From Candidatus Trichofilum aggregatum (GTDB lineage Bacteria; Chloroflexota; Anaerolineae; Promineifilales; Promineifilaceae): DNA of 64,000 nucleotides. Where the stretch lies: NCBI GenBank assembly GCA_016716885.1, contig JADJUV010000025.1, forward strand, positions 2,688-66,687, in the 5' to 3' direction. The notes beneath the pieces were generated by a model. The model saw only the letters and a program-made list of their open reading frames with translations. It ran no database searches and had not been told where the DNA came from. The position numbers and the translations under genes are program-made. Positions 884-54,458 of the stretch are shown in pieces; position 1 is the stretch's first letter, and each line of letters begins with the position of its first letter.

Positions 884-896
884 AGGGTTATGGGGG

Positions 897-1000
897 CAAA
901 TAATTAATCGGTGAATGGTTGAATGGGTGAATTGTTAATGAAGTCCGAAATCGCCTCATTAACAATTCACCAATTCACCAAATTCAACAATTAATTATTC
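897..1000. repeat. Long imperfect hairpin built from GGTGAAT-like words, between kinase and regulator genes
   Basis: Perfect 16-bp arms GGTGAATTGTTAATGA (926-941) and TCATTAACAATTCACC (956-971). Outer arms of GGTGAAT/GGTTGAAT words pair with ATTCACC words. Confidence 0.75.
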
Positions 1001-2633: not shown

Positions 2634-2810
2634 ATGAGGTGTATAATTACCTGCACATTCCGTCCTAACCTGGATAAGCCTGAACCAAAGCGGTTTTGCC
2701 ACGAATTAACACGAGTTAGGACGAATGAGAAAAAGATAATTCGTGCCAATTCGTGAAGTTCGTGGCAGATATCCTTGTTTTCTGCACAAGAAATTGACTT
2801 GTAACCTGCT

Positions 2811-11328: not shown

Positions 11329-12403
11329 TCAGCATAACGCATCCAGGTGGGAGAGGATACGTTCCGGGTTTTTGAGCCGTTGGGCGGCGGTGCGGGTTTC
11401 GGCAATGGCCTGGGTGATGGGTTGGCCTAGTTGGGCCAGCAGGCGGCAAATCTCCAGACGACATTGACATTCGGTAGCCAGTTGGCCGGTGTTCACCAGT
11501 TCTAACAGTTGTTGTTGGCGTAGTTCCAGGGCGCGGGCTGGTTCGTTAAGGCGAAGGTGGAAAGCACAGAGAGCGTCGTAATAATCCGTGGGGGGTTTGC
11601 CGGGCCAGCGCTCGGCCTGGTTGATAGCCTGCCGGGCGAACCGTTTGGCTTTGGGGGATTTCGTCCTGGTACGCGGCCGCGCACGCCTGCCAGGCCGCAT
11701 AAATAAACCGGTGCGCCGTCCACGACCAATAACTTCGTTCAATGGCCTTCATGCCCAGATTGGCATATTCCGCCAGCTTGCCCCACTCCTTCAGCTTAAA
11801 AACAACCGCACATAGCCCCAGATACACATTGATCCGGTAATCATCTTTGTCATCTTCGGCCCGCGTTTCCAGACGCGCCATCCGGTTTAATTCAATCGAG
11901 AGAGCCTTGTCCGCGTTGCCTTTTTTCAATTCAAACTGGGCACGTTTGCCCAAGAGGCAATGATAACATTCCACTTTGGGGCTGACTTCCTGCTCCATAT
12001 AGCTGAGCGCCTGCTCGATTTGCGGCGCATACCCCAACGGATCGATGCCCATGTAGGCGCGAATCAAATCCTCATGCACGCAGATACGTTGGGGGCAATC
12101 ACGCATGGCCGGTTTGCGGGCGGTTACAGTGGCCTGGATGGCTTTATCCAGAGCCTGACTGTATTCGCCCTTGTCGGCCATCAGGGTGAGCAGGTGCAAA
12201 TGGGTGAAACAGAGTTCCCACCACGGTTCAGCCAGGCGGCGAGCCAGGGTTAACCCTTCGTCCAGCAAACTGAGTTGCCAGTTGGGGTCTACATCCTCAG
12301 CCCGATTAGCGGCGAAGAACAGTTCAACCAGGTGTAAACGCTCCAAATCCTGGGCGTCATACGCCTGTCGGTGATAATCGTCAACCCATTGCCAGATGCT
12401 CAT
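11329..12403 (-). CDS. Helical-repeat (TPR-like) protein, unknown function, frame broken at a G5 run (11653-11657)
   Basis: Start MSIWQWVDDYHRQ at 12403. Removing one base of the C5 run (minus strand) joins ...AAYQDEIP to KAKRFARQAINQAERW... (ORF 11329..11742). Confidence 0.5.
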
Positions 12404-12473
12404 AAGTTTCGAGTTTTGAGTTTCGAGTGATGAAGTGCTGAGTCTCTCAGTCTCCAGTCTCTTAGTCTCTCCC

Positions 12474-13938
12474 CTACAACAATCCAGTCCGATGATTGAA
12501 GTCCTCAATGAGGCGGTCAATTTCGGCGGTGCGGCCGCGTAAACTTGTCCAATACGCTTCATCATACCACTGGGCCTGGATTTCCTCAAAGGTGCGCCCT
12601 TGTTGTTCCACCCAGGTGTAATATTTGAGGTTGTGAATCCGTTTGCGATCCTGGTAGCTGAGTTCCTGCATATTGTCGGTGGTTGTGCCTAGCATATAGC
12701 GATGGAAGGCCGCGGCCGCATCCAATTCCGTAAAGTCTCCCTTCTTCCGTGCGTAACTCCTGCACCCGGCTCCGGTACATCTCCATGGAGTCCGTCGCCA
12801 CCGTCAGCAACACATCCCGCTCCGTCATCTCATAATATTTCGCCATTTTGATAGCCGAGAGTACGTTGGCAATGCCGGAGATACCCAGGCTGGGCAATTG
12901 TTGGATGAGGTCGGGAGAAACCCCTTGTTTGTGCAGATATTCCTGCCCTGTTTCTTCGTTGAAGAGGCGCATCAGCCCCATCGCGGCCGCGTCGTCAATC
13001 GCCACCACCATGTCCGTATTCTTAACGTTGTGAATCCAGGGCACATGTTTGTCGCCAATCCCCTCGATGCGGTGCGCCCCAAAACCATTGTTGAGGAGCG
13101 TGGGGCATTGCAGGGCTTCGCTGGCGGTGATCAGACTGCCCGGATATTGCTCCTTCAGATAATCCCCGGCGGCAATTGTCCCGGCCGAGCCAGTGGTCAG
13201 AGCGACGCCCCGGTACCGATCTTGTGGCCCCATCGCCTGATTCAGGACTTCCTGCATGGCTCGCCCGGTCACTTCAAAATGCCACAAATAGTTGCCAAAC
13301 TCCTCAAACTGATTAAAGATGACCAGGTCTTGACCGGAACGACGTAGCTCCCAACATTTGTCGAAAATTTCTTTGACGTTGCTTTCCGTGCCGGGGGTTT
13401 TGATGATTTCGCCCGCGACCTGTTCCAACCAGGCGAACCGCTCGCGGCTCATTCCTTCGGGCAGGATAGCGATGGATTCACAACCGAGCAGGTTGGAATC
13501 ATAGGCCCCGCCCCGGCAGTAATTACCGGTGGAAGGCCAGACCGCTTTCTGGCTGGTGGGATCAAATTGGCCGGTGACGAGCCGGGGAACCAGGCAACCA
13601 AAAGCGGCCCCAACTTTGTGTGCCCCGGTGGGGAACCATTGGCCCAGTAAAACTAAAATGCGGGCCGGTATACCGGAGAGCGCGGACGGAATTTCCATAT
13701 AGTTAGCCCCGCCAAAACCGCCCCCGAAGGCCGTGGGCTGGTTGTGCCAGGTTATGCGGAACAGGTTGAGGGGATTCAAATCCCACAGTCCCACATCGCG
13801 CAGTTTTTCCTGGACGGCCTGGGGAATGAGGCTGGGGTTAATCATCTGTTGGAAGGTGGGGATAATAATGTGCCGTTCGCGGCCGCGTTGTATGGCGCGT
13901 TCCAGAGCGGCTTCATCATAAATGGTCAGGTCTATCAT
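12474..13938 (-). CDS. PLP-dependent enzyme of the tryptophan-synthase-beta fold (OrtB-like lyase/thiolase family), frame broken near 12738
   Basis: PTGAHKVGAAF putative PLP-lysine motif and a ~470-aa architecture with an N-terminal extension. The tail DFTELDAAAAFHRYMLG...HRTGLL is in ORF 12474..12725, one frame off. Confidence 0.6.
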
Positions 13939-13965: not shown

Positions 13966-14040
13966 AATTTACGATTGACGATTGACGATTGGCAGATGTG
14001 CCCTTAATCGTCAATCTAAAATCGTAAATCGTCAATCAAA
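13966..14040. repeat. Hairpin of heptamer words (ACGATTG)x3 / (AATCGTN)x4
   Basis: ACGATTGACGATTGACGATTG, a loop, then AATCGTCAATCTAAAATCGTAAATCGTCAATC. The right arm overlaps the last codons of thrC. Confidence 0.85.
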
Positions 14041-15286
14041 TAGTTGTTGGACGGCGGCCAGGGTGGGGGGAATGGTTTGCGGCCGCGTGCCCACCGCTTC
14101 TACCCCCTTCATGGCACTGGCGATGTCTTTCAGCCCATTACCGGTGTTGAGGACAACGATGCGTTCTGCGGGGGAGACCAGGTTGTGGGCCACCGCCTGG
14201 ACTAAACCGGCGTATGCGGCCGCGCCCGCTGGTTCCGCAAACACCCCACAGCCTCGCGCCAGGGCCGGAATGGCCGCCAAAATTTCCTCATCCGACACCG
14301 TGACAAAGGCCCCGCCCGTCTCTTTGACCGCAGCCATGGCCTTCAGCCGGTCACGCGGCAGACCGGCGCTGATGCTATCGGCGACGGTGCTGGCCCGGAT
14401 GGGCGTTTTGGTGAGGACATCTTCGCCCTGTGCCCAGGCTTCGGCCAGGTAGTTACTGCCTTCAGCCTGTACCCCAATCAGCCGGGGCATCCGCACAATC
14501 CAGCCCAGGGCCAACAAATCCTTCAGCCCCTTGTGCAAACCCCCGATGATACAGCCATCGCCAACGCTCACCAGAATAACATCCGGGGCCTGCCAGCCCA
14601 ATTGTTCGCAGATTTCATAACTGGCCGTCTTTTTGCCCTCGGTCATGTACGGGTTGTAGCCAGTGTTGCGGTTGTACCAGCCGTAATGGTCGGCCGCTTG
14701 TAGACAGAGTTCAAAAGCGTCGTCGTAGGTTCCTTGCACCAGCAACACCGTCGAGCCAAAGGCCAGCAGTTGGGCGATTTTGGCGGGTGGGGCGGTCTGG
14801 GGCACGAAGATGACGTTTTTCTGGCCGACACTGGCGCACAAATTGCTGAGGGCCGCGGCCGCGTTGCCGGTACTGGCGGTGGTAATCACCTCAGCCCCTT
14901 GTTCCTGGGCCTTCACCACGGCCAGGGCACTGGCCCGGTCCTTGAACGAGGCCGAGGGATTACGTCCATCATCTTTGACCCACACATGGGCCAGCCCCAG
15001 CCCCGCTCCCAGGTGCGGGGCCGGGTAAAGGGGTGTCCAACCGACCTGCAAGGGGGGCGCGGCCGCGTCCGGGCGGATGGGCATTAACGGCCGATAGCGC
15101 CAGATGGAAAAATCTCGACTGGCACTCAGGGTTTCCCGATCTACCTGGAAGCGCAGAGCATCATAATCGTAGATGACATCCAGGATGCCTTCCTTGACCA
15201 TGTTCCGGGCAGATATAAGCCACATCGGTAGGGGTATAGGTGCGGCCGCAAATCAAACAGCGTAAGTGGAAAGTGGGGTGGGACAT
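14032..15286 (-). CDS. thrC: Threonine synthase, N-terminal zinc-ribbon segment out of frame (shift near 15196)
   Basis: PLP motif SFKDRAS with TASTGNAA. Upstream ATG at 15286 encodes MSHPTFHLRCLICGRTYTPTDVAYICPEHG, the usual Cys-x2-Cys ribbon, in another frame just before ...KEGILDVIYDYD. Confidence 0.85.
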
Positions 15287-15305
15287 GAGGCGGGATTATA
15301 ACATC

Positions 15306-15352
15306 GGAACTGTGGGAACTCATGGGAACTCCAGGAACTTGTGGGAACTCAC
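15306..15352. promoter_or_regulatory. Phased GGAACT x5 array (period 9-10 bp) in the thrC/pabB divergent region
   Basis: GGAACTGTG GGAACTCATG GGAACTCCA GGAACTTGTG GGAACTC. The complementary AGTTCC array lies at 18040-18095. Confidence 0.6.
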
Positions 15353-16567: not shown

Positions 16568-16918
16568 TTATGAACGGGCAAAACGAACCTGCTTTTCAGT
16601 GACTACCACAAATTGATCGGGAAGTCGGTCAAGATAACTCTCGAATAACTGACGCAGAGTGCTAATTTTTATAACAGAACGATCATTCTCAAGGCGCATC
16701 AAGACAATCCCGCGATGCGGCCGCTTTTCTCGATAAACCTTTTCGCCAAAGTCTTTATCATTGGTAATCAAAATCCAGTTCTCAGCAAAAGCTTTGCGGA
16801 TAATATCTTCGTCATTCACTCCCGGTGACTCTTCATACACAGAGAAAACCTCGTGACCCTGTGCTCGGAGCCACTCAGCGACCGCAGGGCCAGTACATTC
16901 GTCTACCAGGAAACGCAT
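16568..16918 (-). CDS. DUF5615-type PIN-like domain protein (putative toxin)
   Basis: MRFLVDECTG...ILITNDKDFG pattern. Start abuts the upstream stop (TAAATG). Confidence 0.7.
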   Translation of the reverse strand: MRFLVDECTGPAVAEWLRAQGHEVFSVYEESPGVNDEDIIRKAFAENWILITNDKDFGEKVYREKRPHRGIVLMRLENDRSVIKISTLRQLFESYLDRLPDQFVVVTEKQVRFARS

Positions 16919-17167
16919 TTAAGCCAGCTCCACCACAAGTGGCATGAAAGCAGTGTTTTCCAGAGATTTTGTGGCGAACAGAATACACGCCTGAATATCC
17001 TTCTGGTTTAGGGTTTTATATTCATCCAAGATTTCGTCATTCGTCGCCCCATGAGCCAGCAAATTGAGAATATACTCAACGGTCAGGCGGGTGCCGCGAA
17101 TGACCGGTTTGCCAGTCATTACTTTGGGGTTAACGGTTATTCTTTCCAGAAGTTGTTGATCATCCAT
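16919..17167 (-). CDS. DUF433-family protein (putative antitoxin)
   Basis: ITVNPKVMTGKPVIRGTRLTVEYILNLLAHGATNDEILDEY is the typical DUF433 core. Start MDDQQLL at 17167. Confidence 0.7.
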   Translation of the reverse strand: MDDQQLLERITVNPKVMTGKPVIRGTRLTVEYILNLLAHGATNDEILDEYKTLNQKDIQACILFATKSLENTAFMPLVVELA

Positions 17168-17324
17168 AGCTTTTGTTTCCCAAGGGATAGGTCGTTTCCA
17201 GAACAGTAACGAGTTGTTTAAAGTATACAGGGAAGGTACAGATGTTGGAAGGGGAACCGCGGCCGCATCCACCATCCTCACCCGCCCCTCAAACTGCGTC
17301 CACACTATCCCCAAAATTCAATCG

Positions 17325-17678: not shown

Positions 17679-17700
17679 AATACCTCTTTTTCATTAATGA

Positions 17701-17800
17701 TTCGACTCTGGGGAAAATTTGGACGACCTCTGGAAATCTCTTAATCTCTCAGTCTCTTGGTCTCCAGAGGTCAGCACAAAAAACGCCAATGTCGAGTAAT
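17701..17800 (+). repeat. ~100-bp nested-hairpin repeat, copy B
   Basis: TTCGACTCTGGGGAAAATTTGGACGACCTCTGGAAATCTC...GGTCTCCAGAGGTCAGCACAAAAAACGCCAATGTCGAGTAAT aligns with copy A. Confidence 0.8.
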
Positions 17801-18039: not shown

Positions 18040-18095
18040 TGGGAGTTTCGAGTTCCCACAAGTTCCTATGAGTTCCTAGAGTTCCTATGAATTCC
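18040..18095. promoter_or_regulatory. Phased AGTTCC x4-5 array upstream of folD
   Basis: GAGTTTCG AGTTCCCACA AGTTCCTATG AGTTCCTAG AGTTCCTATGA ATTCC. Period 9-10 bp, 35 bp upstream of the folD start. Confidence 0.6.
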
Positions 18096-18127: not shown

Positions 18128-19015
18128 ATGACTGCCAAAATCATTGATGGCAACGAAATTGCCAACCGTATCCGCGAAAACGTCCGCCTCGACGTGGCCA
18201 AAATGAAAGCCGAACACGATTACGTGCCCGGCCTCGCCACCGTCCTCGTCGGCGATAGCACCGCCTCCGCCACCTACGTGCGCATGAAACGCAAAGCCTG
18301 CGAAGAAGCCGGCATCAACTCCATCCATCACGAACTGCCCGGCGACATCTCCCAGGCCGACCTCGAAGCCCTCGTCCGCCAGCTCAACGCCGACCCCGCC
18401 GTGAATGGCATCCTGGTGCAACTCCCCCTGCCTGATCCCCTCGACGAAGAAGCCGTGCTCAACGCCATTGACCTCAAAAAAGACGTAGACGGTTTCCACC
18501 CCGTCAACATCGGCCGCCTCGCCATGAAAGGGCGCGACCCCCTCTTCATCCCCTGCACCCCCTACGGCTGTATGGTTCTACTCGAAGAAGCCGGGGCCAA
18601 ACTCAAGGGCGCCAACGCCGTTGTCCTGGGCCGCTCCAACATCGTCGGCCTGCCCATGGCCATGCTCCTGCAAAAAGCCGATGCCACCGTCACCATCTGC
18701 CACAGCCGCACCCGTGACCTCACCGGTTTCCTGCGCCAGGCCGATGTCATCATCGCCGCCGTCGGCCGCGCCGAAATGGTCACGGGCGACATGATCAAAC
18801 CCGGAGCCGTCGTCATTGATGTCGGCATCAACCGCAAAGACGACCCCACCGCCAAACGGGGCTACCGCCTCGTCGGCGACGTGCATTACGAATCCGCCAA
18901 AGAAGTGGCGGGCGCGATTACCCCCGTCCCCGGCGGCGTCGGCCCCATGACCATCGCCATGCTCATGCAGAACACGCTCAAAGCGGCGCAACTTGTTGTT
19001 AATAGTAAGAAGTGA
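18128..19015 (+). CDS. folD: Bifunctional methylenetetrahydrofolate dehydrogenase / methenyl-THF cyclohydrolase
   Basis: Characteristic ILVQLPLP, DVDGFHP, TPYGC, VVLGRSNIVGLPMA and ITPVPGGVGPMT motifs. Confidence 0.95.
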   Translation: MTAKIIDGNEIANRIRENVRLDVAKMKAEHDYVPGLATVLVGDSTASATYVRMKRKACEEAGINSIHHELPGDISQADLEALVRQLNADPAVNGILVQLPLPDPLDEEAVLNAIDLKKDVDGFHPVNIGRLAMKGRDPLFIPCTPYGCMVLLEEAGAKLKGANAVVLGRSNIVGLPMAMLLQKADATVTICHSRTRDLTGFLRQADVIIAAVGRAEMVTGDMIKPGAVVIDVGINRKDDPTAKRGYRLVGDVHYESAKEVAGAITPVPGGVGPMTIAMLMQNTLKAAQLVVNSKK

Positions 19016-19083
19016 ACAGTAAACAGTAAACAGTGAACAGTAGGCCATGACTGTTCACTGACCACTGTTCACTGTTTACTATC
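19014..19083. repeat. Hairpin of heptamer words (TGAACAG/TAAACAG)x4 and complement, between folD and fhs
   Basis: TGAACAG TAAACAG TAAACAG TGAACAG T, loop AGGCCATGA, then CTGTTCA CTGACCA CTGTTCA CTGTTTA CT. Confidence 0.9.
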
Positions 19084-19102
19084 CCATCCCCAGGAGAATC
19101 CC

Positions 19103-20881
19103 ATGAGTCGTTTCAACCGTTTGACCCCCGTTCCTTCTGATCTGGACATCGCCCAGGCGGCTACCCCTTTATCCATCATCGAAATCGCCGCCCAAATCGG
19201 CCTCAGCCCCGACGATTTGATCATGTACGGCAAAACGAAGGCCAAAGTCCATCTGGATGTGCTCAAAAGATTGCCCGAAAAACCCATTGCCAAATATGTG
19301 GACGTGACCGCCATCACCCCCACGCCCCTGGGCGAAGGTAAAACCACCACCAGCGTCGGTCTGACACAGGGGTTGGGCGCATTGGGCTACAAAGCCATCG
19401 CCTGCATCCGCCAACCCAGCATGGGGCCGACGTTCGGCATCAAGGGTGGGGCGGCTGGTGGTGGTTACAGCCAGATCATCCCCATGGAAGATTTCAACCT
19501 GCACCTGACGGGGGATATTCATGCCATCACGGCGGCACATAATCTGGTCGCGGCCGCGATTGATGCCCGCATTTTCCACGAAGACCGCATGACCGATGAG
19601 CAACTGGCGAAAATCGGCCTCACCCGGCTAGACATTGACCCCTACGCCCTCACCTGGAACCGGGTCATGGATGTGAACGACCGCAGTCTGCGTAACGTCA
19701 TCGTCGGCCTCGGCCCCAACGAAGACGGGCGGCCGCGCCAGACCGGCTTCGATATCACCGTCGCCAGCGAAATCATGGCGATTTTGGCCCTGGTCAATGG
19801 CACGGATTACCGTTCCGCTTTGAAAGATTTGCGCCAGCGTTGCGGCCGCATCGTCATCGGCAACAGCAAGAGCAAAAAACCGATCACCCTGGAAGAGTTG
19901 GGTGTGGCCGGAGCCGTGACCGTACTCATGAAAGATGCCCTGCACCCCAACCTCATGCAAACCCTCGAAGGGCAACCGGCCTTCGTCCATGCTGGCCCCT
20001 TCGCCAACATCGCCCACGGCAACTCATCCATCCTGGCCGACCAGATCGCCATGCGCCTGGGCGATTTCGTCATCACCGAATCCGGCTTCGGCGCGGACAT
20101 TGGCATGGAGAAATTCTTCGACATCAAATGCCGCTACTCCGGCCTCATTCCCAACTGCGTGGTGCTGGTGGCGACCATCCGCGCCCTGAAGATGCACGGC
20201 GGCGGCCCCAAAGTGGTGCCCGGAAAACCGCTCGCGGCCGCGTACATCGAAGAAAATATTGACCTGCTCAACGCGGGCATGGCTAATCTGGCGGCCCACA
20301 TTCGCAACGCCAAACGGTTTGGCATCCCCGTTGTCGTCGCCATCAACAAATTCCACACCGACACCCCCGCCGAAGTTGAAGCGGTGCGTCAGGGAGCTAT
20401 CGCCGCTGGGGCAGAAACGGCGGTGATGAGTGATCATTGGGCCTTGGGTGGTGATGGGGCGATGGAACTGGCGGAAGCGGTCGCGGCCGCGTGCCAACAA
20501 CCGTCCAACTTCAGCTTCCTCTACCCGCTGGAGCAATCCATCAAGGCCAAGATTGAGACGATTGCCAAGGAGATGTACGGCGCGGCCGCGGTCACTTACG
20601 AACCCCTGGCCGAGCAACAGATCAAATCCTACGAAGCCAACGGCTTCGGCAACCTGCCCATCTGCATGGCCAAAACGCATCTCAGCTTAAGCCACGACCC
20701 CAACCTGAAAAACGCGCCCACCGGTTTCACCGTCCCCGTGCGCGAAGTACGGGCCTCTGTCGGTGCTGGGTTCATCTATCCCTTGCTAGGCACCATGCGC
20801 ACCATGCCTGGCCTGGGCAGCAAACCCGCCTACATGAACGTAGACATAGACGAAGACGGTCGCGTCCTCGGCCTGTTCTAA
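19103..20881 (+). CDS. fhs: Formate--tetrahydrofolate ligase
   Basis: [13 protein letters not shown]-loop region, [15 protein letters not shown] and ICMAKT motifs. Full length is intact. Confidence 0.95.
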
Positions 20882-20896
20882 AATCCACTTGAACCA

Positions 20897-20935: not shown

Positions 20936-21258
20936 AATTCTCTTCCTTAAACGTCGATTAGATTTGCCTCACTCAGTCCACTTCATTCCCCTCTCGTTTT
21001 TACCTTTTCCTCTCTGGCCAAAGGCCTTTGTATAACCTATCTATACCCCTCACTTGTATCAAGGTACATGAGAAATCGCGGCCGCTACCCTACAGTAAGG
21101 CTAACGTCTGGTCTTGCCCGATGTTTAACCAGGCGATAACCATACAGGCAGTGGGCATAAACAAAGGTTTTCGCCCCGTCACCCCCTCGCTTTGTCGCCG
21201 CGTCGGGCATATATCCCTGTTGGGGAGCCAACCTTGTTTCAGGGAAAAGGAGTATCAC

Positions 21259-23100
21259 ATGAATAAACATCCACTAAATCGCCTGATGCCAGGGCAACGC
21301 CTTATCGCGCTGCTGTGGGGACTGCTGGTAGTTATGATGATAACAGGGTGTGGCACTGGCGCGGCCGCGGACCCCACCCCCACGCCTGATCAAGAGGCTC
21401 AAATCTCCGCCGCCGCCCAAACCTACCTCACCTTAAGCCAGGATGCCCTGGCCCAACAATTAGGTATTCCTCCCCCAGAGATTGAACTGGAAAGTATGAT
21501 TGAACCGTTTGAAGTCGGTGGAACCTTCATCATCAGACTGAACGCCCAGGGCCAAACCTATGAATACCACGGTATGAATAACGAAGTCCTGCTTGTTTCA
21601 GACCCCTTACCAACGGCCGCCGCCACGGTAGAAATAGCGGCCACAACTGATACCACGCTCACCCCTTCCATCCCCACCGGAACCTACACCTCGACCCACA
21701 CTTTCGAGCTAGCGCTGGTAGATGATCTACAAATCATGTTTGATGACGGGGCGCCTGCCCCTGTGAGTGTGTTCATCAGTGGGCAACTACGGGGTGGCTG
21801 CGAAGAAATTTATGAAAGTAGTGCCATCATGGTAAACGACACAACCTTTGTGGTTGATGTGATGACCCGTCGTCCGAATGATGTAGCCTGTACTCTGGCA
21901 CTCGTTCCTTACACCCACACCGTATCGCTGGGCACCGAAGCCGCAGATTTACCCCCTGGCGAGTACACTGTGGTCGTAAACGATGAACACACCACCACTT
22001 TTGCCTGGCCAAACGGCAGTGGCATCAACACACCCTTGCCGCCCACGGTAAGCTTCACCCTGACGGAGACGGTTGCTATCTCTAGCACCACCCAGATCAT
22101 CACGGCCACTGAGGTGACTGAAGACAGGCCGTACTGGGAACTTTTCCCCCTGCATACGGAAATCACATTAGCCGGATATGTCCAGCCAGATTCTTTGCTG
22201 GTCCCGCGCCTTTTGGTTTATCCGGCCAGTGAGTTTGCGCGGCTGAGCGACGCGGCCGCGGCCCAAATTGACGCCCTCAGTGAACTCTTGGCCACAGAGC
22301 CACTACTGGTTGAAGCGCAAACATTGCCATTTCTGCCGCTTTTTAATGCTGCACCCATGTTCCATGCCCAGGGGCAGTATTTGGACTTCGCCAACGGTAG
22401 CGGCATTCGCTACTTGACTCAATACGAACAGGCAACCGTCCCTGTGAACAATCAGGAGCTGTTCTACACGTATCAAGGTTTAACCGATGACGGCGCGTAC
22501 TACGTAGCGGCGGTCTTCCCGGTTTCCCACCCTGATCTGCCCGCCGATATCTCCTCTGTACCAGAGGACATGGCGGATGACTTTGAAACTTATATGAACA
22601 GCGTCATAGAGCAGATGAATGGGGCGGACGCGGCCGCGTTCACGCCGGATTTAGCCACACTTGATGCGTTGGTTCGCTCAATAATGGTTACAGGCCAAGG
22701 TGAACCCGTTGATGAGGGCATTGCCGTCTACACTGGGGCCGATCTGGTACGTGAGCTGGAAAGTGCCGGAGCCACCGTGGCTCTTAGTACCGAACCCATC
22801 TCGGGAGCAGATATCTTTACCGTGTCTGGATACATCCTTTTTGTCAACGGCGAGGAGATTACGCTTTATCAATATGAAAGTGGGGACGCGGCCGCGAGTG
22901 ATGCGGCCCGCATCTCGGCTGATGGATTCATCATTGAGCCGCCTGAAGGCAGTGAAAGCGGAGAGATTGTTGTAGATTGGCTCAATCCCCCCCACTTTTA
23001 CCAGCGCAACAACCTGATCATCCTCTACGTAGGCACGGATGAAAGCATAATAACATTGCTGGAATCTGTGCTCGGCTCACCCTTTGCTGGTGGTCAATAA
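21259..23100 (+). CDS. Large lipoprotein, unknown function
   Basis: AAAAGGAG RBS. MNKHPLNRLMPGQRLIALLWGLLVVMMITGC lipobox followed by a PT-rich linker. No recognisable catalytic motifs. Confidence 0.7.
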   Translation: MNKHPLNRLMPGQRLIALLWGLLVVMMITGCGTGAAADPTPTPDQEAQISAAAQTYLTLSQDALAQQLGIPPPEIELESMIEPFEVGGTFIIRLNAQGQTYEYHGMNNEVLLVSDPLPTAAATVEIAATTDTTLTPSIPTGTYTSTHTFELALVDDLQIMFDDGAPAPVSVFISGQLRGGCEEIYESSAIMVNDTTFVVDVMTRRPNDVACTLALVPYTHTVSLGTEAADLPPGEYTVVVNDEHTTTFAWPNGSGINTPLPPTVSFTLTETVAISSTTQIITATEVTEDRPYWELFPLHTEITLAGYVQPDSLLVPRLLVYPASEFARLSDAAAAQIDALSELLATEPLLVEAQTLPFLPLFNAAPMFHAQGQYLDFANGSGIRYLTQYEQATVPVNNQELFYTYQGLTDDGAYYVAAVFPVSHPDLPADISSVPEDMADDFETYMNSVIEQMNGADAAAFTPDLATLDALVRSIMVTGQGEPVDEGIAVYTGADLVRELESAGATVALSTEPISGADIFTVSGYILFVNGEEITLYQYESGDAAASDAARISADGFIIEPPEGSESGEIVVDWLNPPHFYQRNNLIILYVGTDESIITLLESVLGSPFAGGQ

Positions 23101-24038: not shown

Positions 24039-24070
24039 GTAGCTATTCAGCTAATCATTTTGAGTTTTTG

Positions 24071-24237
24071 TTCGTAGTGACCGCTTTTGTTGATTAAATT
24101 TTTAATCGGGTAATGAGGGATCCTCCCCCTTCGCTGGGGGAAGTCGGGTGTGGCGCGCCGAAACCGGTCCGCCCGGGGGCGGGGGGGTGGGGGAAACCGG
24201 TCACCTGACTATTTTCAACTAAAGCGGTCACTACGAA
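24071..24237. mobile_element. MITE-like element with 18-bp inverted termini enclosing G/C-run repeat copy 2
   Basis: TTCGTAGTGACCGCTTTT (24071-24088) and AAAGCGGTCACTACGAA (24221-24237). The interior carries GGGGGCGGGGGGGTGGGGGAAACCGG, the reverse complement of the 9003-9050 module. Confidence 0.6.
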
Positions 24238-24323
24238 TCGTATCTTTTTCTTGAAAGCTATAGCAGGGTGAAGCTGCGTCCTAAAAAATCTGCCTGAAGT
24301 TTCGTTTTCTGGAAGGTGAATCT

Positions 24324-24872
24324 ATGAATGTCTTGGTAACGGAACGGCTGCATTTACGCCACCTTACGATTAACGATGCGCCGTTCATCTTTGAACTACT
24401 GAATGAACCCTCTTTTATCCAAAACATCGGTGACCGGGGGATACGCACGGTAGATGATGCCCAGGCCTATATTTTGAACGGCCCTGTAGCCAGCTACGAA
24501 CGATTTGGTTTTGGTTTGTTTTTAGTCGAGCTTAAAGAAGCGCATACGCCAATTGGCATGTGTGGGCTGATAAAAAGGGATAATTTGCCTGATGTAGACG
24601 TCGGTTTTGCGTTTCTCCCCCGGTTCTGGGGGTTGGGGTATGCCTTTGAGTCGGCTGCGGCTGTGATGACTTATGGCCATGAGGTATTGGGGTTGAACCG
24701 GATCGTGGCTATCGTTTTGCCAGACAACGTTGGCTCCATCAATGTCCTACAAAAAATTGGCCTTACCTTTGAGCGGATGATTCGTTGGACTGATGATGGC
24801 AGCGAGCTTAAGTTATTTGGCCCGCCGGAAAAGCCCACAGTCCTGGCAAACCACCCGTATGCAGAAAAATGA
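24324..24872 (+). CDS. GNAT-family N-acetyltransferase (RimJ/RimL-like)
   Basis: 182 aa with RLHLRHLTINDAPFIFELLNEP... and FWGLGYAFESAAAV acetyl-CoA-binding region. Confidence 0.8.
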   Translation: MNVLVTERLHLRHLTINDAPFIFELLNEPSFIQNIGDRGIRTVDDAQAYILNGPVASYERFGFGLFLVELKEAHTPIGMCGLIKRDNLPDVDVGFAFLPRFWGLGYAFESAAAVMTYGHEVLGLNRIVAIVLPDNVGSINVLQKIGLTFERMIRWTDDGSELKLFGPPEKPTVLANHPYAEK

Positions 24873-25857: not shown

Positions 25858-25884
25858 GAAAAGGATTTTCGGTTTGTTGTCGTG

Positions 25885-25928
25885 ACTTTAGCCGACCAAC
25901 GGTAGCCCGCTAAAGCGGTCACTACGAA
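25885..25928. repeat. Hairpin with ACTTTAG/CTAAAG core; right arm identical to the 24219-24237 terminus
   Basis: GTCGTGACTTTAGCCGA ... CCCGCTAAAGCGGTCACTACGAA. The 19-nt CTAAAGCGGTCACTACGAA is identical at 24219 and 25910. Confidence 0.75.
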
Positions 25929-25963
25929 CGAAAATTCCAGATGATTATCAGCCCATCTATCAT

Positions 25964-29281: not shown

Positions 29282-29383
29282 AATGGAGTTTGGCGTTTTT
29301 TCTGTTGACCTCTGGAGACTAAGAGACTGAGAGACTAAGGGATTTTCAGAGGTCGGACTAATTTTCGCCAAAGTCGAGTAATC
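29282..29383 (-). repeat. ~100-bp nested-hairpin repeat, copy C (reverse orientation)
   Basis: GGAGTTTGGCGTTTTTTCTGTTGACCTCTGGAGACTAAGAGACTGAGAGACTAAGGGATTTTCAGAGGTCGGACTAATTTTCGCCAAAGTCGAGTAAT. Confidence 0.8.
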
Positions 29384-30182: not shown

Positions 30183-30314
30183 ATTGCTGGTGACTGAGTT
30201 TCAGAACAAAGGGTCAGTCAACCGGCAGAATTCCAACGACGTGCGGGGGTAGTGCCAGGGTGTATTGGTTATTTGTCATTCTTCATTCTCAAATAGCCAA
30301 TACACCATGATTTT

Positions 30315-33026: not shown

Positions 33027-33228
33027 GAGAAGGTATCTTCACTATTGGTCATTGGTTCGGTGAACCGCGGGAATGCGGCCGCCTGAGGCAAGTTACTGGG
33101 GTGAATTATACCAGACTTGCCCGGTTTTCTGTCTGTCTGGGTATAATCGGGTTTGCCTTTGGTGGATTTTGAGGAAAACCCGCACACCTCTGTAACCAGG
33201 AAGTGACAGGCTCCATTTACACTAACTC

Positions 33229-33322
33229 ACTCGACTTTGGCGAATTTTACGTCTATCTCTGGAAATCTCTCACTCTCTTAATCTCCATAGGTCAACACAA
33301 AAAACGCCAAGCTCCACTAACT
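33229..33322 (+). repeat. ~100-bp nested-hairpin repeat, copy D
   Basis: ACTCGACTTTGGCGAATTTTACGTCTATCTCTGGAAATCTCT...CTCCATAGGTCAACACAAAAAACGCCAAGCTCCACTAAC, in the polA/pat divergent region. Confidence 0.75.
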
Positions 33323-42831: not shown

Positions 42832-42920
42832 TTACCCTAACATTATCCCTAGTCCACTGGCTTGAAACCGGAACAGGCATACAGGTGTACGAGCCAGTGG
42901 GTTAGGGGAAAACAGAAAAT

Positions 42921-42954
42921 AAAAATGGGCACCATGTGCCCATTTTTGTTTTCT
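42921..42954 (+). terminator. Intrinsic terminator of the cytochrome operon
   Basis: AAAAATGGGCAC, loop CAT, GTGCCCATTTTTGTTTT. Perfect 8-bp GC-rich stem flanked by A and T runs. Confidence 0.85.
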
Positions 42955-47550: not shown

Positions 47551-47688
47551 TGTGCCCGTGGGGCCGGTGATGACTGGGTCCCTGGCGGCGGGGGCCGTCG
47601 AACCGTGTCAGGTCCGGAAGGAAGCAGCACTAAGGCGTATCCCTCGGGTGACCAGGAAAACCTGGTGATCATCGGTCTCATGGGCACA
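47551..47688 (+). ncRNA. ffs: Signal recognition particle RNA (4.5S type)
   Basis: Contains GTCAGGTCCGGAAGGAAGCAGC, identical to the universally conserved domain IV core. 5' TGTGCCCGTGG pairs with 3' CTCATGGGCACA. Followed by T7. Confidence 0.9.
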
Positions 47689-49178: not shown

Positions 49179-49193
49179 CCGGGAAAGAAGTTT

Positions 49194-49335
49194 CACAGAG
49201 GGCACAGAGAGGAAGACACAGAGACACACAGAGTTTTAAAAGCAGTTTGTTTTCTCTCTGTGAATCTCTGTGTCTTCATCTCTGTGCGCTCTGTGTAACC
49301 TCTTCCTGACTTGCTGTACAAAAAGTTGACTGATT
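49194..49335. repeat. ~140-bp CACAGAG/CTCTGTG hairpin element, copy 1
   Basis: CACAGAGGGCACAGAGAGGAAGACACAGAGACACACAGAG, a loop, then CTCTCTGTGAATCTCTGTGTCTTCATCTCTGTGCGCTCTGTG, plus a shared tail ...CAAAAAGTTGACTG. Homologous to 51459-51600. Confidence 0.85.
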
Positions 49336-51399: not shown

Positions 51400-51458
51400 C
51401 GGCCGCGTTCCCCCTTCATCCTTCCTAACCTGAACAAGCGAGAACCAAAAAGAAGGAA

Positions 51459-51600
51459 CACAGAGGGTTACAGAGAAGACACGGAGATACACAGAGTTAT
51501 AAAAACGGTCTTGGCTTTTCTCTGTGAACCTCTACGCTTCCTCTGTGAATCTCTGTGTCATCTCTTTCTTGCTAACTGGTCAAAAAGTTAACTCGTAAGG
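51459..51600. repeat. ~140-bp CACAGAG/CTCTGTG hairpin element, copy 2
   Basis: CACAGAGGGTTACAGAGAAGACACGGAGATACACAGAG, a loop, then CTCTGTGAACCTCTACGCTTCCTCTGTGAATCTCTGTGTC and tail ...CAAAAAGTTAACTCG. Confidence 0.85.
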
Positions 51601-52744: not shown

Positions 52745-52887
52745 TGAGCGCATCCTTTATCTCCTTCTCTGGGAAAATTACCCTCTTGCCACTGTGGGCA
52801 CGAATGATTCGTGATTTTGGCAGGTTTTGCCCAATGTGACAATGTGACAATGGGACAGGCAGCAATTCTCATTTTGAGCGAATTTGG

Positions 52888-53038
<151 letters not shown>

Positions 53039-53162
53039 AACCGAGGAATTAAAAATGCGTGGGACAGGCGTCAGGTTGTTTGACGCCGGGCGATGGGTAG
53101 CAGACAATTGGGGTATGGGACGTGTGGCGTGGGGCGTGTTACGTGGAAGAGTGGGAGCAGAG

Positions 53163-54458
53163 ATGGGCAAAACCTTAAATAGAAAAGGGCCTGTATCTAC
53201 GGCTTACATCCGACGCACCACGCACCACGCACCACGTTTATTCCTCTGGCTCACCCTGGTTCTCTGGCTGGTAGGTTGTCGCACCGAAACGGCGGGAACC
53301 GCGGCCGCGGCCCTGCCCTCGCCCATCGCCACCATCGTTTTACCCAGCCTCACCCCCACACCACCGCCCACCTTCACTGCCATTCCCACGGTAACACCCT
53401 CGCGCACCTCAACCCCAACCTGGACCCCTTCACCCACGGCCACCCCCACCCAGACGCCAACCGAAACCCCCACAACCATCCCCACGGCCACCCCCGTGCC
53501 GGTGAATCGGCGTTGCCCGGAGACATCCCCCGCCAAGCCGGAATACCAACGAGGTTTCCTGTCCCCCGAACTGTGGCCGACGCCCAGTGCCGCGGCCGCA
53601 GAACCCCATTTCTGGTTGTCGCGGCCGCTACCGGGAGCCGACCGTTTCCTCACTAATGATTGGTTGCCCTACGGCTGGGATGCGTACCGCTATTTGCTCC
53701 ACAATGGCACCGATGTGGCCGAACCCCAAGGCACACCCTTGCTCGCGGCCGCGGATGGCACTGTCGTCACGGCGGGTGAGGATGTCAACGAGTTATACGG
53801 CTGGCGTTGCGACTGGTACGGCCATCTGGTGGTAGTGCAACTAGACGATTTGTGGCAGGGTCAGCCCGTCTATTTCTTGTACGGCCACGTGCAAAACATC
53901 GTGGTGGAAGTGGGGCAGCGGGTTTACCGGGGCGAACCATTGGCCGAAATTGGCAAGGGCGGCGCGGCCTTACTGCCTCACCTGCACCTGGAAGTGCGGG
54001 TGGGAACCAACGAATTTGGCTCCACGCGCAACCCGATGCTCTGGTATTATCCCGGCACGGCGCGGGGCGTGATTGCCGGGCGACTGCTAGACCCGCAAGG
54101 GCGCCCCTGGCAGGGAATCGTCATTGAAGCGGTAGGGCGTTCAGAGAATAACCTCGAAGAACGACCCCGCACCTGGAGTTATCTGGGTGATCCGCAGGGG
54201 CTGATTAACCCGGATGAGGTGTATGCGGAGAATTTCCTCTTTGCCGACATGAAGCCGGGGCTGTATGAGTTGTTTGTGACAGTGCAGGGGGTGCAATATC
54301 GGGCCGAGGTGGAAGTGTTCGCGGCCGCGGTCAGCCCCATCACCATCATCACCGAGCCGTACCGGGAACCCACCCCCGGCCCCTCTCCCACTCTTGAGCT
54401 ACCCACCCTGGTTCCTACAACCATCATCTCGCCCACCCTCACCCTACCCCCAGAATGA
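53163..54458 (+). CDS. M23 (LytM-type) peptidase lipoprotein
   Basis: LWLVGC lipobox, PT-rich linker, and M23 motifs HNGTDV...GTPLLAAADGTVV...YGHV...LPHLHLEV. The start is uncertain; the ORF opens at 52884 only because of the homopolymers. Confidence 0.8.
   Translation: MGKTLNRKGPVSTAYIRRTTHHAPRLFLWLTLVLWLVGCRTETAGTAAAALPSPIATIVLPSLTPTPPPTFTAIPTVTPSRTSTPTWTPSPTATPTQTPTETPTTIPTATPVPVNRRCPETSPAKPEYQRGFLSPELWPTPSAAAAEPHFWLSRPLPGADRFLTNDWLPYGWDAYRYLLHNGTDVAEPQGTPLLAAADGTVVTAGEDVNELYGWRCDWYGHLVVVQLDDLWQGQPVYFLYGHVQNIVVEVGQRVYRGEPLAEIGKGGAALLPHLHLEVRVGTNEFGSTRNPMLWYYPGTARGVIAGRLLDPQGRPWQGIVIEAVGRSENNLEERPRTWSYLGDPQGLINPDEVYAENFLFADMKPGLYELFVTVQGVQYRAEVEVFAAAVSPITIITEPYREPTPGPSPTLELPTLVPTTIISPTLTLPPE

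Follow-up and report, generated by a model that had tools for sequence, protein, structure and literature searches.

Long hairpins whose arms are themselves built from tandem words of seven or so nucleotides lie at junctions between co-oriented genes in a stretch of DNA from Candidatus Trichofilum aggregatum (Chloroflexota, Promineifilaceae), and they raise the question of what such structures are, how they arise and whether they act in the cell. The stretch analysed is 64 kb long, and we refer to the whole of it as the window. Three hairpins within it are followed here: site 1, between folD and fhs; site 2, between thrC and the gene for a second enzyme of the PALP family; and site 3, between a histidine kinase gene and a response regulator gene. 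The reading that we favour, and to which we give an even chance of being right, is that they are tandem-word arrays with units of 7-11 nt, similar to the short tandemly repeated repetitive (STRR) sequences of cyanobacteria, that became paired into intercistronic stem-loops through replication slippage together with template switching or recombination, and that have a role on mRNA other than termination. Loci compared with the window are cited by L numbers.

Site 1 occupies positions 19011-19082 on the plus strand. Its 5′ arm (19011-19042) reads AGTGAAC AGTAAAC AGTAAAC AGTGAAC AGT, that is, four AGT[GA]AAC heptamers, and is followed by a loop of about 8 nt (about 19043-19049) and by the complementary words of the 3′ arm (19050-19082); the predicted RNA folding energy is −36.9 kcal/mol (z −6.76). 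Site 2 (13966-14040, minus strand; −30.5 kcal/mol, z −6.94) reads GATTGAC GATTTAC GATTTTA GATTGAC GATT on its sense strand, then a loop, then AATC GTCAATC GTCAATC GTAAATT. Site 3 (893-1000, minus strand; −47.8 kcal/mol, z −9.60) is a 44-bp stem of 7-8-nt words of the GGTGAAT and TTGAAT types with a perfect 16-bp core, GGTGAATTGTTAATGA / TCATTAACAATTCACC. Fold significance was assessed as a z-score of the folding energy against 200 shuffles, none of which folded as well as any of the three sites. A previous interpretation of this DNA, which we call the sequence-only reading, had described these three hairpins, their words and their placement between co-oriented genes, and all of this was confirmed. 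Its further claim of a common period of 7 held under formal autocorrelation for sites 1 and 2, where identity at lag 7 is 0.68-0.88 against roughly 0.2 at other lags, but failed for site 3, where the best period is 8 (lag 8, 0.64-0.67; lag 7, 0.42-0.48) and the array is a mixture of 7- and 8-mers rather than a heptamer array; across the family the period ranges from 7 to 11.

The placement of the arms relative to the flanking genes follows the same pattern at all three sites: the 5′ arm starts within or at the upstream gene's stop codon, and the 3′ arm finishes 10-30 nt ahead of the next start codon, leaving the ribosome-binding site free. At site 1 the folD stop TGA (19013-19015) lies inside the word AGTGAAC, the final codons and stop codon of folD are in phase with the word array, and an RBS-like (ribosome-binding-site-like) GGAG sits within the 20-nt gap that separates the hairpin from the fhs start codon. 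Every word of this site includes TGA or TAA, and the period of 7 rotates these stops through the three reading frames, as read directly from the letters. The thrC stop TGA likewise falls inside the first GATTGAC word of site 2, and the base of the site 3 stem overlaps the final codons and TAA stop of the kinase gene (AAT AAT TAA).

Word hairpins are beyond chance, both by these z-scores and by comparison with control DNA. Using Tandem Repeats Finder, we counted two inverted paired arrays in the 64 kb window and two in 63 kb from the four closest genomes, against none in 142 kb of more distant Anaerolineae and one in 1195 kb from other phyla. Arrays of period 7 occur at about 17 per 100 kb, compared with 2.3 in the other-phyla controls. 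The architecture is family-wide. A locus of Candidatus Promineifilum breve (L177) carries six word hairpins in 21 kb; their periods are 7, 8, 9 and 10-11, and three lie at consecutive co-oriented junctions within one gene cluster (orientations there were taken from database gene calls); examples of its arms are (CGCAGATTT)x3 against (AAATCTGCG)x3 and (CTAGGGG)x4 against (CCCTAGC)x5. Every word hairpin catalogued in the lineage falls between genes; the automatic catalogues were parameter-sensitive, and one run missed site 1. Two familiar kinds of repeat were considered and rejected: CRISPR, as the units here are contiguous without spacers, and protein-coding repeats, as all elements are intergenic and many words contain stop codons.

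Evidence of constraint on a hairpin comes from the folD-fhs junction. In the closest set of relatives (L164-169; folD 94% and fhs 90% nucleotide identity), the spacer is the same 87 nt with two changes, one at 19021, a bulged and unpaired base, and the other at 19083, outside the hairpin. Thus none of the 54 paired bases differs from L164, from which the window has diverged by 25.8% at four-fold sites and by 8.5% overall (P ~1e-7 if the four-fold rate is applied, 0.008 with the overall one); the low-divergence block around the site measures 146 nt. In L082 (folD 88.5% nucleotide identity) the architecture is the same, and position 4 of the word is G rather than A in all aligned words of the 5′ arm, with a matching T-to-C change in the 3′ arm; both arms thus have AGCAG words, and the stem is still perfect over 20 bp. 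The site 1 stem is conserved within a species-level clade. In other relatives the junction is variable: L081 (folD 91% nucleotide identity) has an unrelated 130-nt element of CGCAAAG words between folD and fhs, and L170-172 (fhs 79% nucleotide identity), together with the abundant L181-188 type, have an unstructured 38-nt spacer. In the outgroup L170, a proto-array of the words GAGCAGT AATTAGT AAGCAC spans the stop codon. The C-terminus of FolD varies in close relatives where the array overlaps the stop (..VVNSKK*, ..ALNS*, ..VVSSN*), with lengths of 292-295 inside one 90% identity cluster (window 18995-19015; L082:3085-3098; L170:10870-10885), and that of ThrC varies likewise (..LFD* vs ..IFAH*); the arrays appear to reshape the final codons of the gene that precedes them.

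More distant relatives have structures of another composition at these positions. A GC-rich palindrome, GAGACGCCCC..GGGGCGTCTC, occurs twice in L083:5345-5420, after folD or thrC in place of the word hairpin, and in P. breve (L177:11262-11340) inverted copies of the GC-rich GTAGGGCGGGTTGG.AACCCGCCC are found in the same kind of position. For L164 (L164:2647-3143), comparison with L165 and L166 revealed an identical FolD and a differing copy number of a 147-nt tandem repeat, in which a 37-nt palindromic insert, CGTGGTTTTTCGGGGCCTTCGCCCCGAAAAACCAYGC, is nested; the insert is present in some of these three and absent in others.

One alternative to the proposed role on mRNA is that the hairpins are a functionless by-product, in which slippage and template switching peculiar to this lineage generate arrays and palindromes that are harmless and persist in tolerant spacers. 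Unpaired direct arrays of the same words are found in about one third of spacers and in all orientation classes, many words and periods are used, a junction that holds a hairpin in one strain is bare or occupied by a direct array or an unrelated element in close relatives, and the bias in predicted stability toward the sense strand that an RNA function might leave is absent (see below); all of these are what a by-product would lead one to expect. The intact 54 paired bases of site 1, with the sole change inside the hairpin falling at the bulge, are less readily accommodated, as is a vocabulary common to several genera. A by-product also has difficulty with placement: word hairpins, unlike direct arrays, are missing from divergent spacers, with 0 of ~17 independent cases against the 19% of spacers that are divergent (P ~0.03, from a catalogue that is partly manual). 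We regard this explanation as possible, though the chances are clearly against it.

A second question is whether the hairpins travel. The vocabulary of words is shared, dispersed and present in high copy. Dimers of AACAGT, AGCAGT, GATGCGT, GATTGAC, CGCAAAG, AATTCGT, GGAACT, GAGACT, CACAGAG and GAAACT are repeated at non-orthologous sites across genera, while in 1.85 Mb of control DNA two of the 11 tested families had one site each, and a search of 169 kb of other Anaerolineae found no such dimers. The arms of site 3 (898-943 and 956-1000) and one arm of site 2 (14006-14040, at ~20x) reach 13-36x the depth of their single-copy flanks in four sludge metagenomes, although these matches may be same-word arrays aligning in any register rather than copies of one element; the high-depth arms have sharp edges and many differing flanks and loops. 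No clear excess of depth was found for site 1 in metagenome X1. Further copies elsewhere had been anticipated by the sequence-only reading, as had variation among relatives in presence, absence and copy number at these junctions, and both are borne out by these data.

The alleles of site 2 provide a closer view of how spacers change. L176 (ThrC 91%) has kept the hairpin, one of whose arms is longer by a single 7-nt word; in L174 and L175 (93%) the order of the words has changed, and both contigs stop inside the array; and L173 (96%) has a direct array of GGAACT words. Contigs from two metagenomes match the window exactly along 199 nt of the downstream gene and then pass into a cassette of the L173 type, from which we conclude that alleles of site 2 are exchanged among very close strains. 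The segment swapped at sites 1 and 2 spans the upstream gene's final codons through to the ribosome-binding site of the next gene, without duplication, and comparison of both junctions revealed no target-site duplication and no terminal inverted repeats beyond the words themselves at the swap boundaries. A classification as MITEs (miniature transposable elements with inverted repeats) was rejected on the lack of duplication at the allele boundaries of both junctions.

One may still postulate a form of mobility, in which an enzyme acting in trans copies or moves hairpin cassettes into the spacers at gene ends, as in self-propagating miniature elements of the MITE kind or the REPINs, hairpin-forming elements of the repetitive extragenic palindromic (REP) sequences. 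REP sequences, the bacterial interspersed mosaic elements (BIMEs) that they compose and REPINs are multicopy extragenic palindromic hairpins that often lie in operons, and a REP family consists of one conserved palindrome tied to a REP-associated tyrosine transposase, RAYT (PMC3116915); the arms described here differ in being internally periodic and in using many different words. As usually defined, the palindrome of a REP or REPIN is imperfect, measures about 20-40 nt and recurs many times in a genome, and RAYT is a transposase of the IS200/IS605-like type. The sharply bounded, high-depth arms of sites 2 and 3 with their varied flanks and loops would be expected of mobile cassettes, as would the contig that agrees fully with the window across 199 coding nucleotides and yet carries another cassette at site 2. 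The same can be said of two related ~110-nt hairpin copies of CACAGAG words that lie 2 kb apart in the window, of a dispersed ~90-nt element (29288-29375 and 33225-33310) and of the 37-nt palindromic insert that comes and goes among the L164-166 strains. Against this, the swap boundaries are without target-site duplications or word-independent terminal inverted repeats, at sites 1 and 2 the arrays keep phase with the upstream terminal codons and were apparently seeded there, and the high copy number may arise simply because same-word arrays match one another in any register. We consider such mobility quite unlikely.

The favoured reading supposes that the hairpins are transcribed, and this is the case for site 1. 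In six metatranscriptomes belonging to two studies, RNA contigs that cover 18989-19140 and 18920-19140 cross the entire hairpin and join the 3′ end of folD to fhs, in agreement with the placement inside an operon that had been proposed for this junction. These contigs have three differences from the window, identical to those of the L164-type relative, and they represent transcripts rather than contaminating DNA, because RNA depth is little or none upstream of ~18050 while DNA runs cover that region.

Termination or attenuation, with the hairpins setting the ratio of upstream to downstream expression as terminators that lack a U tract, would suit a very stable stem directly 3′ of a stop codon, and the restriction of the hairpins to co-oriented and convergent spacers would fit it. 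A canonical intrinsic (Rho-independent) terminator was rejected for all three sites, as no U tract follows the stem on the sense strand; the tails are CUAUCCCAUCCCC at site 1, AAAUUCCUAAAGUCCC at site 2 and UGCCCCCAUAACCC at site 3. Canonical terminators with U tracts do occur elsewhere in the window (e.g., around 24000 and at 42914-42954). The RNA contigs moreover cross site 1 into fhs, and in the six metatranscriptomes contig depth is similar on both sides, although these are assembled contigs, in which partial termination or processing is not visible. A consensus terminator scan of the window gave no excess over shuffled sequence, and its sole match at site 1 is antisense. We therefore hold terminators or attenuators free of a U tract to be very improbable. 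A scan against Rfam 15 at the gathering score returned nothing at the hairpins; its sole match in the window is a bacterial small signal recognition particle (SRP) RNA at 47572-47670 (RF00169, 70.5 bits).

In the reading of slippage-born, paired arrays, an array would form at the 3′ end of a gene, often starting in or at the stop codon, and would then acquire an inverted copy of itself, resulting in a long and near-perfect stem-loop that is transcribed. Replication slippage on units of 7-11 nt would lengthen and shorten the arrays, and an array that includes the stop codon could expand downstream without changing the protein. Slippage is suggested by the extra word in L176 and by orthologous direct arrays with 3.4 and 6.4 copies; local seeding is suggested by the phase that the arrays share with the last codons of folD and thrC and by the proto-array at the L170 stop codon. 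Fold-back template switching would make the inverted arm and keep it complementary. Such switching can create and maintain RNA hairpins, fixing both sides of a stem in one event (Monttinen and Loytynoja, PMC8794818); it is a general mechanism, and if it operates here it would account both for the birth of the inverted arm and for the compensated words of L082. Recombination through the conserved flanking genes would then swap spacer alleles between strains. As to what the product might do, REP sequences of Escherichia coli protect upstream mRNA from 3′ exonucleases, and the stem-loops described here may similarly block 3′-to-5′ exonucleases or be a place where the polycistronic mRNA is processed, which would determine how stable the adjacent cistrons are relative to each other. 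We put this forward tentatively, since the balance tilts somewhat against it.

Several observations weigh against the favoured reading as a whole. Purely local slippage does not explain a vocabulary common to several genera. At the folD-fhs junction the bare spacers of L170-172 and L181-188 show that the hairpin is dispensable, and at site 2 the direct array of L173 is unpaired and has no significant fold (z −1.2). The 146-nt block of low divergence around site 1 could reflect a short recombination tract instead of purifying selection. In the metatranscriptomes examined, there was essentially no RNA coverage at sites 2 and 3. Finally, when predicted RNA stability was compared between strands, the sense strand was the stronger in 7 cases and the antisense in 10, a comparison of low power given that most of the stems are near-perfect; as there is no bias toward the sense strand, selection at the RNA level is not demonstrated.

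This symmetry of stability between strands would also be expected of an element that acts as DNA, either as a cruciform or as an array bound by a word-specific protein, with effects on replication, recombination or nucleoid structure. A limited vocabulary common across genera would suit such an element as well, and so would the direct arrays of 10-mers upstream of thrC and folD, in which each unit corresponds to one helical turn. Many unrelated words in one architecture nevertheless argue against a single sequence-specific binder, and no candidate binding protein was identified; we give this explanation hardly any weight. The 10-mer array in the folD leader (18050-18095, plus strand) is GAGTTCCTAT x4.7, and the 10-mer (G)AGTTCC(C/T)AT(G) is present in 4-5 copies upstream of both thrC (15302-15351) and folD, in the same orientation relative to the gene. 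They are retained with varying copy number in orthologous leaders (L081:706-750, L082:2149-2185, L173:1549-1585, L174:2274-2304 and L176:3208-3248), and they may be a leader or cis-regulatory element common to both genes, each unit spanning one helical turn.

Are such paired arrays known from other bacteria? The STRR sequences of heterocystous cyanobacteria have units such as CCCCAGT, TTGGTCA and CAACAGT, and intergenic regions of nif genes in Anabaena were reportedly described in 1995 as "highly variable but structured". In form the resemblance proposed by the sequence-only reading is good: in both cases there are several families of tandem words, here with a period of 7 at sites 1 and 2 and of 8 at site 3, that are intergenic, dispersed, able to pair between co-transcribed genes and variable among close strains, and several of the words here have a CAGT core (AACAGT, AGCAGT and GGCAGT). 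The arrays of the window differ in that the host belongs to the Chloroflexota rather than the heterocystous cyanobacteria, the units range over 7-11 nt, the arrays are anchored at stop codons and the paired form is common.

The closest match is provided by the GGGAATC arrays of Xanthomonas campestris and X. axonopodis, which lie mostly between aligned genes and rarely between divergent ones, and which include 70-75 cases of two close convergent arrays able to form stem-loops or cruciforms (Rehm et al. 2015, PMC4692102). Array length there differs among related genomes, and whether an array is single or part of an inverted pair mostly stays the same (PMC4692102). As inverted heptamer pairs between co-oriented genes have already been described in Xanthomonas (PMC4692102), the paired-array architecture is not new in kind; in both systems two arrays of the same unit lie close together, convergent and intergenic. 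The Xanthomonas system, however, uses one G-rich word that forms G-quadruplexes, while here there are many words (AACAGT[GA], GATTGAC, GGTGAAT and others) with no G3 tract, and here whole cassettes are swapped for other words at the same junction. The Xanthomonas study also cites three tandem heptanucleotides in Calothrix PCC 7601 (in PMC4692102). Direct heptamers of TAACTGA are known from marine Beggiatoaceae, some cyanobacteria and some Bacteroidetes; they often end a few nt before a start codon with no evident Shine-Dalgarno sequence, and 169 sets are direct and one is inverted (MacGregor 2015, PMC4679880). A direct C[GA]AAACT array of the window (12405-12428), which stops 1 nt before an ATG, is similar to these, whereas the hairpins are inverted arrays that follow stop codons. 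We found no description of such repeats in the searchable literature on Chloroflexota and Promineifilum.

A broader interpretation would see in these observations a word-array system that spans the family, in which a limited vocabulary of 7-11-nt words is used as interchangeable cassettes at gene boundaries, with direct arrays abutting starts and inverted arrays abutting stops, under purifying selection within species and exchanged between strains. It would be either a post-transcriptional code peculiar to the lineage, with RNA-binding proteins or RNases as its readers, or a novel self-propagating class of hairpins with a machinery of its own, convergent with the STRR sequences. We think this unlikely. 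In one genus the arrays co-occur with an octamer resembling the cyanobacterial highly iterated palindrome (HIP), GCGGCCGC. If the interpretation were true, it would need explaining that, to our knowledge, the lineages with bulk heptamer arrays (heterocystous cyanobacteria, Beggiatoaceae and these Chloroflexota) are all filamentous or multicellular. Should the stems act on mRNA, they would represent a simple and fast-evolving means of tuning relative expression within the operons of abundant and poorly understood wastewater filaments. The series of loci compared here is in addition a natural example of the birth, upkeep and replacement of a hairpin, from bare spacer through stop-codon proto-array, paired array and compensated words to cassette replacement. 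Arrays of this type also break short-read assemblies (L174 and L175 end inside one) and appear to alter C-terminal codons, which matters for metagenome-assembled genomes and their annotation.

The octamer GCGGCCGC was the other repeat for which the sequence-only reading had proposed a cyanobacterial parallel. It is a highly iterated palindrome similar to HIP1 and outside the cyanobacteria: it occurs 133 times in 64 kb (e.g., at 15242, 19550, 50708 and 51399), or once every 481 bp, where base composition predicts 1.8 copies, while the next commonest palindromic 8-mer in the window has 14 copies. An over-representation of ~70-fold bears out this part of the proposal. The two phenomena are not coupled: the excess of GCGGCCGC is confined to the genus-level clade of the window (L164, L170, L173, L176, L179 and L082, with 12-27 per 10 kb), being absent in L001-L004 and almost so in P. 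breve, and the word arrays reach much further.

Four further word hairpins are present in the window. The largest (49180-49310, plus strand), between a gene with a G5/3D domain and rsmA, is made of CACAGAG and CTCTGTG words with 49-nt arms (−79 kcal/mol, z −11.3), and a second copy of the same family lies at a convergent junction (51455-51565, plus strand; z −3.7). A hairpin of CACGAATTA and TAATTCGTG words with a period of 10 is found at 2700-2755 (plus strand; z −4.5), and its word AATTCGT is found again in L179. The fourth (30259-30306, minus strand) has 17-nt arms and weak periodicity and begins 8 nt past the stop of the upstream gene. Unpaired direct arrays, GAGACTNN x4 followed by C[GA]AAACT x3, fill the spacer after the second PALP gene (about 12405-12471, minus strand), which they occupy entirely, stopping 1 nt ahead of the next ATG, where a Shine-Dalgarno sequence is lacking. 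Copy number differs between the orthologous arrays, 3.4 vs 6.4 (L173:4426-4503; see also L179:13195-13222). As direct arrays fill the spacer at 12400-12475, the open reading frame (ORF) at 11546-12589 as called is overlong at its 5′ end.

The genes that flank the three sites form co-oriented pairs in each case. On the plus strand, folD (18128-19015; methylene-tetrahydrofolate dehydrogenase/cyclohydrolase, PF00763 and PF02882) precedes fhs (19103-20881; formate-tetrahydrofolate ligase, PF01268 in orthologues). On the minus strand, thrC (14032-15225; threonine synthase) lies upstream of the gene for the second PALP enzyme (12586-13938), which is pyridoxal phosphate-dependent; as ThrC homologues have 417-419 aa, the true start of thrC is probably upstream of the listed ORF. 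Also on the minus strand, a histidine kinase with GAF, HisKA_3 and HATPase domains (991-2298) is upstream of a response regulator of the LuxR type (242-883). For both FolD and ThrC, the nearest sequences are from uncultured Anaerolineae/Promineifilaceae of activated sludge (Candidatus Leptovillus, Candidatus Leptofilum and P. breve), the ThrC of P. breve being 78% identical to that of the window, and wastewater metagenomes contain DNA of the window. A genome scan for shared gene order around folD found no synteny past folD itself. Looking up the exact FolD of the window yielded no contig, and among the matches listed by a scan of one metagenome with FolD identity was at most 72%, too distant to help with orthologous junctions. 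Downstream of fhs, a 690-aa ORF with no Pfam match (21028-23100) precedes a region encoding an RNA recognition motif (RRM) protein; because the flanks homologous to window position 20882 and ~23124 are nearly adjacent in L164 and L170, this gene is either an insertion in the genome of the window or a deletion in its relatives.

Other repeats and features of the window were noted in passing. The dispersed ~90-nt element occurs at 29288-29375, in inverse orientation at 33225-33310 and in part at 17700-17768, with ends that resemble CTCGACTTTGGCGAAAATT and a core of the 8-mer words GAGACTAA / TCTCTTAA. A small family of TTCGTAGTGACCGCTTTAGC... / GGAGTCGCGGCTTTAGCCGGTAGAC repeats, in tandem or inverted, is found at about 11400-11470, 24060-24330 and 25880-25950. 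A gene pair encoding DUF433 and DUF5615 (PIN-like) proteins at 16568-17314 is probably a toxin-antitoxin module. At 52889-53038, at the start of a dubious ORF (52884-54458), there are homopolymer hairpins that run G31, A8, a short spacer and C18, then G41, a short spacer and a C-rich run, which represent either a real homopolymer palindrome or an artefact of assembly or sequencing.

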